Below are positions 12,837 through 14,842 of a stretch of DNA of 21,082 nucleotides, piece after piece (position 1 is the stretch's first letter; every line of letters starts with the position of its first letter). The stretch is from Acidimicrobiia bacterium. GTDB taxonomy: Bacteria; Actinomycetota; Acidimicrobiia; Spongiisociales; UBA11373. The DNA lies in contig JBBDMM010000018.1 in the NCBI GenBank assembly GCA_040878325.1, forward strand, positions 62,001 through 83,082, given 5' to 3'. The notes under the pieces were generated by a model. It saw only the letters and a list, made by a program, of their open reading frames with translations. It did not search any database and was not told the DNA's origin. A program made the position numbers and the translations under genes.

Positions 12837-13832
12837 CTACAGCCTCTCGATCAGGTCGACGACCCGATTCGAGTAGCCCCATTCGTTGTCGTACCAGGCG
12901 AGGATCTTCACCAGGTTGCCGCCGAGGACCTGGGTCGAGGGGGCGTCGAAGATCGCCGAATGGGAGTTGCCGATGACGTCGCTCGACACGAGGGGCGCTT
13001 CCGAGTACTCGATGATGTCGCTCAGTGGCCCGCTGGCCGCCTTGGCGATTGCGGCGTTTACCTCTTCGACCGTGACATCCTTCTCGAGTTCCACCACGAG
13101 GTCGACGGTGGAGCCATCCGGTACCGGTACCCGCATGGCCATGCCGTCGAGTTTGCCCGCTAATGAGGGGATGACCTCGCCGATCGCCTTCGCGGCCCCG
13201 GTTGAGGTGGGAATGATGTTCTCGGTGGCTGCCCGGCTGCGGCGGAAGTCCTTGTGGGGGACGTCGGCCAGCCGCTGGTCGTTGGTGTAGGCGTGGACCG
13301 TGGTCATCACGCCGTGCTTGATGCCGAACGCATCGTCGAGAACCTTGACGATGGGGGCGAGGCAGTTGGTGGTGCAGGAGGCGTTGGACACCAGCAGGTC
13401 GTCGGCCTCGAGGTCCCCGTCGTTTACGCCGATCACGATCGTGGCGTCGAGGGCGTCTTTGGACGGCACGGTGAGGATGACTCGCTTGGCGCCGGCTTCG
13501 AGGTGCTTGCTCACACTTGCCCGGTCGCGAAACACCCCGGTGGCTTCGATGACGACGTCGACCTCGAGCTCCTTCCACGGCAGCGTGGCCGGGTCCTTGA
13601 TCGTGAGAAGGCGGGGGCGGTGACGGCCCGCCACGAGATGACCCTCATCGACAGTCACCGGCCCGGGGAATTCCCCCATCACGGTGTCGTACTTGAGTAG
13701 ATAGGCGGCCATCTCATCGGTCGCCAGATCGTTGATCGCCACGATCTCGATGCCGGAGTCGCGCCGTTCGTTGATGACGCGAAACACCGAGCGGCCTATC
13801 CGCCCGAACCCGTTGATGGCGACCCGGGTCAC
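12837..13832 (-). CDS. gap: Type I glyceraldehyde-3-phosphate dehydrogenase (catalytically intact)
   Basis: GTG 13832; 'INGFGRIGR', '[12 protein letters not shown]', 'VHAYT', 'TSTGAA', 'AMRVP', 'WYDNEWGY'. Confidence 0.96.
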
Positions 13833-14842
13833 TTCGAGACCTTGTCGAACGAAGCCATCTTCTCGATCACGTCGATCACCCGGGCCGAATACCCCCAGCC
13901 GTTGTCGAACCAGGTGACGCACTTGAGCATGTTGCCGCCGACGACGATGGTGGCGAGGCCGTCCCAGACGGCCGAGTGGCGGTTGCCGATCACGTCGCTC
14001 GAGACGATCGGATCCTCGGTGTATTCGATCATGTGCGCCGTGCTGGCTGCCTCGCGAACGGCCGCGTTCACCGCCTTGGCGTCGGTAACGGTGCCGAGGG
14101 TCGCCACGAGGTCCACGTTCGACCCGTTGGAGACCGGCACATTGAGCGCCATTCCCGAAATCTTCCCCGCCAGTTGGGGGAGCACGAGCGCGATCGTCTC
14201 GGCGGAGCTGGTGGGCTGAGGAATGATGTTCTCGGCGGCCGCCCGGCTGGTCCGGAAGTCGTCGCCGGGGACATCAGCGAGCCGGGCCTGGTTGGTGAAG
14301 GCGTGGACCACGGTGTAAAGCGCCCGGTCGATGCCGAATGCTTCGTCGAGGATCTTGAGGATCGGTGCCAGGGCGTTGGAGGTGTTCGACCCCAGCGCGA
14401 CCATGAGATCGTCGGGTCCGAGCAAATGGTCGTTGGCTCCCATGATCACCGTGTCCATGTCGGCCGGGTTTTCGGGGGTCGAGGCGAGTATCACCCGTTT
14501 CGCCCCACGGTCCAGGTGCTTCGAGCACTCGGCTGCGGTGCGGTGCTTGCGCGTCGCCTGCACCACGATGTCGACGCCGACCGAAGACCAGTCCGTGTCG
14601 CCGGGCTCGGGATTCGAGAGCATCGGAATTCGTCGGTCGCCGACGAGCAAGTGACCGTCGGCAAAGTCGACCGCCTCGGGAAACCTGCCAAAGATGGTGT
14701 CGTACTCGAGCAGGTAGGCGAGCGCGGCCGGATCAGCGATGTCGACGATGGCGGCTACTTCGAGATCGTCCCGACCCCAGGTCTGGCGAAACACATTCCG
14801 CCCGATCCGCCCAAACCCCATCAGCCCGATACGAGTGGTCAC
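13829..14842 (-). CDS. GAPDH paralogue lacking catalytic Cys (putative pseudoenzyme)
   Basis: 337-aa intact frame; 'MGFGRIGR' kept, but '[11 protein letters not shown]', 'QPTSSA', 'ALNVP' and 'WFDNGWGY' replace canonical active-site motifs; GTGA overlap with gap. Confidence 0.9.

Follow-up and report, generated by a model that had tools for sequence, protein, structure and literature searches.

A catalytically disabled GAPDH paralogue overlapping an intact gap gene in Acidimicrobiia, a candidate non-catalytic subunit

Bacterial glyceraldehyde-3-phosphate dehydrogenase (GAPDH), among the most studied of enzymes, is a textbook homotetramer. What is the role of a GAPDH paralogue that has lost the catalytic Cys and is encoded directly upstream of an intact gap gene? 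This question is raised by a locus in a 21,082-nucleotide stretch of DNA (the window) from an Acidimicrobiia bacterium (GenBank assembly GCA_040878325.1, contig JBBDMM010000018.1, positions 62,001 to 83,082 of the forward strand). An earlier note on the window had described the upstream gene, here called gapX, as a dead paralogue translationally coupled to the active gap and had proposed that it encodes a pseudoenzyme subunit. Our literature search returned no description of a Cys-less GAPDH paralogue coupled to gap. Here we report that the disabled paralogue is kept by selection and tied to the active gene, as judged from adjacency over two phyla, gene overlap, the ratio of nonsynonymous to synonymous substitution rates (dN/dS) and co-divergence, and we weigh what the GapX protein may do.

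Locus and active site of GapX

gapX (13829–14842, minus strand) runs from a GTG start at 14842 to a TGA stop at 13831–13829 and encodes a 337-residue GAPDH paralogue without Cys149, Arg195 and Arg231. gap (12837–13832, minus strand), which encodes a canonical type I GAPDH of 331 residues, runs from a GTG start at 13832 to a stop at 12837. The two open reading frames (ORFs) are arranged head to tail with gapX upstream, and the gap start shares bases with the gapX stop, as the earlier note had it: the GTGA at 13829–13832 (minus strand), a translational-coupling junction, reads ...TCG AAG TGA in the gapX frame and GTG ACC CGG in the gap frame. GapX and Gap are 51% identical over 331 residues, and the claim that gapX is full length holds, with no frameshift or internal stop.

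Alignment to Gap bears out the active-site substitutions read earlier and adds two. The nucleophile motif SNASCTTNC of Gap is ALGSNTSNA in GapX, corresponding to Cys149Asn and Cys153Ala; Asn153 of GapX, encoded by AAC at 14384–14386 (minus strand), occupies the catalytic Cys149 position. AMRVP is replaced by ALNVP (Arg231Asn), with Asn234 of GapX (codon 14141–14143, minus strand) at the phosphate-binding position. The inorganic-phosphate (Pi) loop around Thr208-Gly209 changes from TSTGAAKA to QPTSSAET, altering the positions of Gly209 and Lys212, and WYDNEWGY becomes WFDNGWGY (Tyr311Phe and Glu314Gly); Gly315 of GapX (codon 13898–13900, minus strand), at the Glu314 position, is a hallmark of the family. 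The losses beyond the earlier list are Cys153Ala and the replacement of the second Arg of DFRRSRAA by Thr (DFRTSRAA). We take this Arg to be Arg195 in B. stearothermophilus numbering, a label that agrees with the alignment offsets. In GAPDH, Cys149 forms the thiohemiacetal and thioester, and Arg231 is an anion-site residue, according to passages of PMC12041015.

The NAD site, the active-site His and an inter-subunit loop are retained, again as read earlier. GapX keeps the Rossmann dinucleotide-binding fingerprint GFGRIGR (14798–14818, minus strand), the Asp32 equivalent at the end of strand 2, Asn313 (Asn314 of GapX) and the general base His176 (His180 of GapX in VHAFT; codon 14303–14305, minus strand). 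It also keeps the core of the S-loop, RLADVP...R..RAA.ENIIP. The S-loop comprises GapX residues 181–208 (14219–14302, minus strand) and is assigned to the R interface from passages of PMC5119734, which locate a loop of residues 181–206 in this interface alongside the residues with which the neighboring subunit contacts NAD. The fingerprint residues G, G, R, I, G, R and the Asp32 equivalent are conserved in both the GapX and the Gap alignments, and from its intact Rossmann site GapX is predicted to bind NAD(H).

Both proteins carry the Pfam domains Gp_dh_N (PF00044; 5.9e-28 for GapX) and Gp_dh_C (PF02800; 3.7e-46 for GapX). Against TIGR01534, with a cut-off of 367.2 bits, Gap scores 448.8 bits, whereas GapX remains below the cut-off at 305.5. 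GapX also falls short of TIGR01532 for Epd (242.6 bits against a cut-off of 530.55) and of NF033735 for ArsJ-associated GAPDH (267.7 against 450), and the Pfam-annotated neighbors of gapX are RimM and the CofG/CofH radical-SAM proteins; an arsJ neighbor was looked for, and no transporter family was matched. An AlphaFold2 model of GapX, computed from a 30-sequence alignment, has a predicted local distance difference test score of 89.4 and is confident except in the S-loop. The model superposes on 1NPT and 1GD1 with a template-modeling score of 0.90, at 40–42% identity to the solved enzymes.

The active-site motifs of Gap are all intact, including SNASCTTNC, AMRVP and WYDNEWGY. The source genome (2.2 Mb, 98.9% complete) contains gapX and gap as its only GAPDH-family genes, plus one 19-bit match elsewhere; its pgk lies on a different contig from the pair. 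The pair is also the sole GAPDH in four relatives with genomes of ~1 Mb and in two of four carrier genomes outside Acidimicrobiia, G419 (labeled Acidobacteriota) and G421 (labeled Oligoflexia).

The GTG at 14842 is preferred as the gapX start because 337-residue homologues span 99–100% of the protein from this codon. One database gene call for an identical protein begins at an ATG seven residues later; the 337-residue homologues favor GTG. No Shine-Dalgarno-like motif lies near the GTG in 14843–14900, the nearest being AGAGAGG, 29 bases upstream. A promoter and terminator scan of 12600–15200 returned no site of either kind, a result that is uninformative in an actinobacterial genome of 65% G+C content. 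A search of sequencing runs with a stretch of the window listed no RNA run among its matches; one DNA run, a possible source, shares 0.99 of the words, and the others share small fractions, which has no bearing on expression or habitat.

Distribution, selection and descent of the gapX–gap pair

Of 41 genomes from the genus, family and order to which the window belongs, at least 33 have a GapX-type gene. Thirty loci were fetched; in 27 of them the next gene downstream, on the same strand, is a canonical gap, and the remaining three reach the contig end. To cover more distant carriers, we scanned one genome per species, which yielded 279 relatives, and used 80 loci, all from metagenome-assembled genomes (MAGs); the carriers are uncultured. 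Three of these loci (L099, L104 and L106) were not parsed by the motif script, and their GapX sequences were left out. One paired locus and one outgroup row come from the unpublished genome G039, on which no claim rests. Most of the 80 loci are labeled Acidimicrobiia or Actinomycetota, many are labeled Acidobacteriota (Thermoanaerobaculia, Holophagales) and one Oligoflexia. The stop of gapX and the start of gap overlap by four bases, as ATGA or GTGA, in 60 of 63 parsed pairs; the other three pairs are spaced by −1, 0 and +1. The conserved adjacency to an intact gap for which the earlier note had proposed to look is thus borne out.

The genes around the pair differ among carriers. In the window the pair is flanked by a convergent rimM and by divergent cofG and cofH, and in one locus elsewhere pgk lies upstream; the constant feature is the link between gapX and gap alone. 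Among 401 sampled genomes of the class, 73 contain the exact codon pattern for WFDNGWGY, and a reversed control gives no matches. The pattern is present in 59 of the 65 genomes of a family whose genomes are ~1 Mb in size with 31–34% G+C, and in 16 of the 301 Acidobacteriota sampled. Because the motif has variants, these are minimum counts.

To assess conservation, we collected the 120 best matches to GapX (62–100% identical) from a collection of 5.8 billion proteins. All 120 carry Asn at the Cys149 site and Gly at position 314; position 231 is Asn in 115, Gly in four and Thr in one. Asn231 is invariant in the 30-sequence GapX alignment, which spans two phyla, and Gly314 is present in 64 of 64 GapX sequences. 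The fixation of the substitutions in all 120 best homologues argues that they are more than chance. The reading frame is unbroken in every gapX copy read. Relative to the nearest relative, dN/dS (Nei-Gojobori) is 0.064 for gapX, at a synonymous divergence (dS) of 0.26, whereas gap gives 0.098; both genes range from 0.07 to 0.26 in the 44 remaining comparisons, in which dS is near saturation. gapX is under purifying selection, much like gap, and does not evolve neutrally. GapX diverges somewhat faster than Gap, with a mean pairwise identity of 0.577 versus 0.707 over 64 genomes and a lower identity in 99% of the pairs. The pairwise identities of the two proteins correlate with r = 0.92.

Maximum-likelihood trees were built by a quick IQ-TREE search from 76 rows (33 GapX) and then from 88 rows (39 GapX). 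All GapX sequences lie on one side of a branch with a Shimodaira-Hasegawa-like approximate likelihood ratio test value of 100, and the GapX subtree mirrors the Gap subtree. On these sequence trees, GapX forms a clade of single origin that co-diverges with its partner. Six differences between GapX and Gap are fixed family-wide: Ile6Leu, Asn7Met, Cys153Ala, Arg231Asn, Tyr311Phe and Glu314Gly.

The catalytic residues themselves were lost in more than one way. Of 64 GapX sequences, 47 have Asn at the Cys149 position, 16 have Cys and one has Val; the 88-row tree needs three changes at this position, and Cys was lost at least three times (to Asn or Val). Acidobacterial GapX keeps Cys149, His176 and the Arg195 position and has lost Arg231. 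GapX-like clusters among the 150 best library representatives, defined by the absence of Glu at 314 and seen as sequences outside their genomic context, have Ser, Pro, Ala or Val at the Cys site. The variant WFNNGWGY is present in 11 of the 12 genomes of family f4 (loci L114:1960-2979, L128 and L130–L133). Five of the six f4 loci read combine Cys149Asn with His176Lys (VVKAMSN), and even there the end of gapX shares bases with the start codon of a canonical gap. The varied loss of Cys and the loss of His in f4, in proteins still coupled to gap, suggest that the conserved role of GapX is probably something other than GAPDH-type catalysis. The earlier note had counted Cys in close relatives as evidence against its proposal. 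Close relatives uniformly have Asn, and Cys recurs only in the distant acidobacterial members, where it counts against catalysis as the conserved role and not against the finding itself.

Two GapX sequences look intermediate. That of L108:7004-8020 keeps SNASCTSNC and has AMNVP and WFDNGWGY; that of L096:7004-8026, with SNASCTANA and ALCVP, lies next to the branch that parts GapX from the canonical Gaps.

Several further loci were recorded in the survey. In five Holophagales and Thermoanaerobaculia loci (L084, L091, L097, L102 and L111; ~9077–10428 in each), a pfk gene (PF00365) follows gapX and gap on the same strand, as a 387-residue ORF in four of them and within a longer, 643-residue ORF in L097. 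This arrangement suggests a glycolytic gapX–gap–pfk operon in these groups. Gene pairs of the Acidimicrobiia type occur on contigs L051, L065, L070 and L054 from MAGs labeled Kiloniellaceae, Gammaproteobacteria or Acidobacteria, which are probably mis-binned contigs or loose labels. Families f12 (L134–L137) and f2 (L120–L121) have neither gapX nor a partner-type gap; each has a single GAPDH, 37–42% identical and with a different S-loop, and the pair seems to have been replaced as a unit.

The S-loop and the proposed role of GapX

Conservation within GapX peaks in the S-loop (0.74), which is also where GapX is most similar to its own partner: identity there is 0.71 versus 0.42–0.48 elsewhere, or 0.70/0.67 versus 0.47 overall in the comparison of 64 genomes. 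Recent gene conversion was considered as a source of this likeness and rejected. At third positions the identity is 0.613 within the S-loop versus 0.578 elsewhere, and the cross-genome control gives 0.574 and 0.547; there is no excess of synonymous identity in the S-loop, so recent conversion does not explain the likeness.

Loss of gapX offers a view of the loop from the partner's side. Some Acidimicrobiia lack gapX (G014, G023, G029, G040 and G030), and the Gap proteins of gapX-less Acidimicrobiia nest within the partner clade. In two loss lineages, G014/G023 and G029/G040/G030, we examined the 174 columns with a conservation of 90% or more among 47 partner Gaps. The two lineages changed 13 and 17 of these columns, seven of them in common (hypergeometric P = 2.8e-5). 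The S-loop contains nine of the 23 columns that changed (P = 1.4e-3), among them the equivalents of 183, 184 and 187. Positions 187, 188 and Asp32 presumably determine cofactor specificity. The title of PDB entry 1DBV names Leu187, Pro188 and Asp32 as mutated positions. Change of the partner S-loop after the loss of gapX is expected if this loop had adapted to GapX and re-adapts without it. Family f12 was unusable as a third loss lineage because its Gap is of a different type: four of five genomes have a single Gap of that type and one has no match at the threshold.

These observations support a model in which GapX joins Gap in a mixed tetramer as a subunit that binds NAD(H) without being catalytic; we assign this model a probability of roughly 0.55. 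Coupled translation would supply GapX and Gap together and in a fixed ratio. GapX would bind NAD(H) through its intact Rossmann site and pack on Gap at least across the R interface, with each S-loop reaching the cofactor site of the neighbor. The dead subunit could then tune how the two live sites bind cofactor, how they cooperate or how stable they are. A 2:2 stoichiometry is probable, yet both the stoichiometry and the direction of the effect are guesses. A stronger version, in which the glycolytic GAPDH of Acidimicrobiia, including streamlined-looking ~1 Mb genomes, and of some Acidobacteriota is an obligate hetero-tetramer of two live Gap chains paired across the R interface with two dead, NAD(H)-only GapX chains, is put forward tentatively, at somewhat less than even odds. 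If it holds, half-of-the-sites behavior and cofactor cooperativity would be hard-wired into a separate gene.

Several points weigh against a mixed tetramer. The S-loop is highly conserved in all GAPDHs, and the convergence test covers two loss lineages. One of the seven sites changed in common, Tyr44His, was considered as a partner-specific marker and discarded because Tyr is also found there in unrelated Gap types. The strands of GapX at the P interface are no more conserved than background (0.59 versus 0.56–0.57). No GapX–Gap fusion was found among the best 150 library representatives, whose long matches carry canonical motifs. The replacement residues are strongly conserved (Asn149 throughout Acidimicrobiia, Asn231, Gly314 and a T-N-S-P-E loop), and the pocket, instead of being silent, could have become the site of a new ligand or reaction. 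Finally, the acidobacterial members that keep Cys149, His176 and Arg195 may still be enzymes.

Some of these points would equally suit a GapX that acts outside the Gap tetramer, as a homo-oligomeric NAD(H)-binding regulatory or moonlighting protein, for example in redox sensing or with another partner, that is merely made together with Gap. Such a protein would need the retained Rossmann fingerprint, Asp32 and Asn313 and would be under purifying selection, and it would call for neither specially conserved P-interface strands nor a fusion with Gap. However, a near-universal four-base overlap over two phyla and strict adjacency amid varying neighbors exceed what co-regulation needs, the partner S-loop changes convergently when gapX is lost, and GapX resembles its partner most closely in an inter-subunit loop. 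We consider a separate protein unlikely. A GapX that is still an NAD-dependent oxidoreductase, using His176 and a new Asn/Asn/Glu pocket on a non-phosphorylated or activated acyl substrate without a covalent thioester, would account for replacement residues that are conserved rather than drifting, for the retention of His176 in most members and for the acidobacterial proteins with Cys, His and Arg195. Passages of PMC12041015 further indicate that some clades of the wider GapDH superfamily without the active-site Cys still reduce activated acids. Yet GapX has no common catalytic set: the Cys site is Asn, Val or Cys in context-checked members and Ser, Pro or Ala in GapX-like clusters; position 231 is Asn, Thr or Gly in context-checked members and close homologues and Ser, His, Lys or Phe in the clusters; and His176 is Lys in f4. 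Moreover, gap alone travels with gapX, and no pathway genes do. The altered chemistry that the earlier note had left as an alternative is thereby weakened and now appears unlikely.

The loss of gapX from five genomes (G014, G023, G029, G040 and G030) would also fit a recently disabled duplicate on its way out, a pseudogene whose frame is still open. Against this stand the intact frame of all copies read, the low dN/dS, a clade that spans two phyla and the retention of gapX in 59 of 65 genomes of the streamlined ~1 Mb family. A pseudogene or decaying copy is ruled out by the fixed substitutions, dN/dS, retention in small genomes and the tree, and its probability is practically nil.

Neighboring genes and comparison with known systems

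Divergent from gapX, the window contains two slightly overlapping radical S-adenosylmethionine (SAM) ORFs, at 14892–16154 and ~16150–18010 (both plus strand), the second with a CofH_C domain. They look like the FO synthase proteins CofG and CofH of F420 biosynthesis, encoded as separate genes. cofG and cofH neighbor the pair in close relatives (L040, L045 and L056) and not in distant carriers, which suggests that they probably have no functional link to gapX. A 193-residue ORF at 11482–12063 (plus strand), between ffh and a KH-domain ORF, has an N-terminus that is read as ribosomal protein S16 and a C-terminal extension of ~100 residues rich in Ala, Glu, Pro and Val. A PQQ/Kelch beta-propeller protein is encoded at 2–2071. 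Five long ORFs of 325–550 residues match no Pfam family at E ≤ 1e-5: 2158–3450, 3521–4834 and 6563–7540 on the plus strand, and 18061–19713 and 19539–21080 on the minus strand.

Of the known systems, type I GAPDH (GapA; TIGR01534, EC 1.2.1.12; 1GD1 and 1NPT) is the closest in structure. GapX has the same two Pfam domains, the fold, the Rossmann fingerprint, Asp32, His176, Asn313 and the S-loop core. It differs by Cys149Asn, Cys153Ala, Arg195Thr, Arg231Asn, the altered Pi loop, Tyr311Phe and Glu314Gly, and its gene always sits just upstream of a true gap. Because it lacks the curated score, Cys149 and the anion sites for substrate phosphate (Ps) and Pi, GapX should not be annotated as type I GAPDH. 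gapX genes are publicly named "type I glyceraldehyde-3-phosphate dehydrogenase", which makes the gap copy number appear too high in metabolic reconstructions.

The chloroplast GapA/GapB enzyme is a GAPDH hetero-tetramer of two paralogous chains, both of them catalytic, with regulation residing in a C-terminal extension of one. GapX has neither such an extension nor the catalytic Cys. In plant PPi-dependent phosphofructokinase, a glycolytic enzyme, a catalytic chain is combined with a related regulatory chain. PMC6920184 describes this enzyme as a heterotetramer; it belongs to another fold and another kingdom, and the likeness to GapX–Gap is an analogy only. Epd (TIGR01532) is, like GapX, a GAPDH paralogue with partly altered Ps and Pi sites, as passages of PMC12041015 indicate, but it is an enzyme of pyridoxal synthesis that keeps the catalytic Cys and His, whereas GapX has lost the Cys.

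The closest functional resemblance, by analogy, is to the trypanosomatid prozymes. Catalytically dead paralogues of deoxyhypusine synthase and S-adenosylmethionine decarboxylase (AdoMetDC) are kept in these organisms, according to the abstracts of PMC3663545 and PMC5201418, and the one on the synthase reports that deoxyhypusine synthase forms a heterotetramer with the dead paralogue, with a 3000-fold rise in activity. GapX would likewise be a dead paralogue of an active enzyme under selection: it has lost catalytic residues, is under purifying selection and is co-inherited with its active paralogue. Unlike gapX and gap, the prozyme systems are eukaryotic, their genes do not overlap and their live partners are impaired, whereas Gap keeps every catalytic residue. 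If GapX is a subunit of GAPDH, whole lineages, including those with ~1 Mb genomes, would rely for a central step of glycolysis on an enzyme made from two genes, with a non-catalytic subunit built in. The pair would then be a naturally occurring system in which to study NAD cooperativity and the communication between subunits in GAPDH. It would also be a clear prokaryotic addition to the few known pseudoenzyme partners, in the form of a bacterial "prozyme" that serves a core enzyme in central metabolism.

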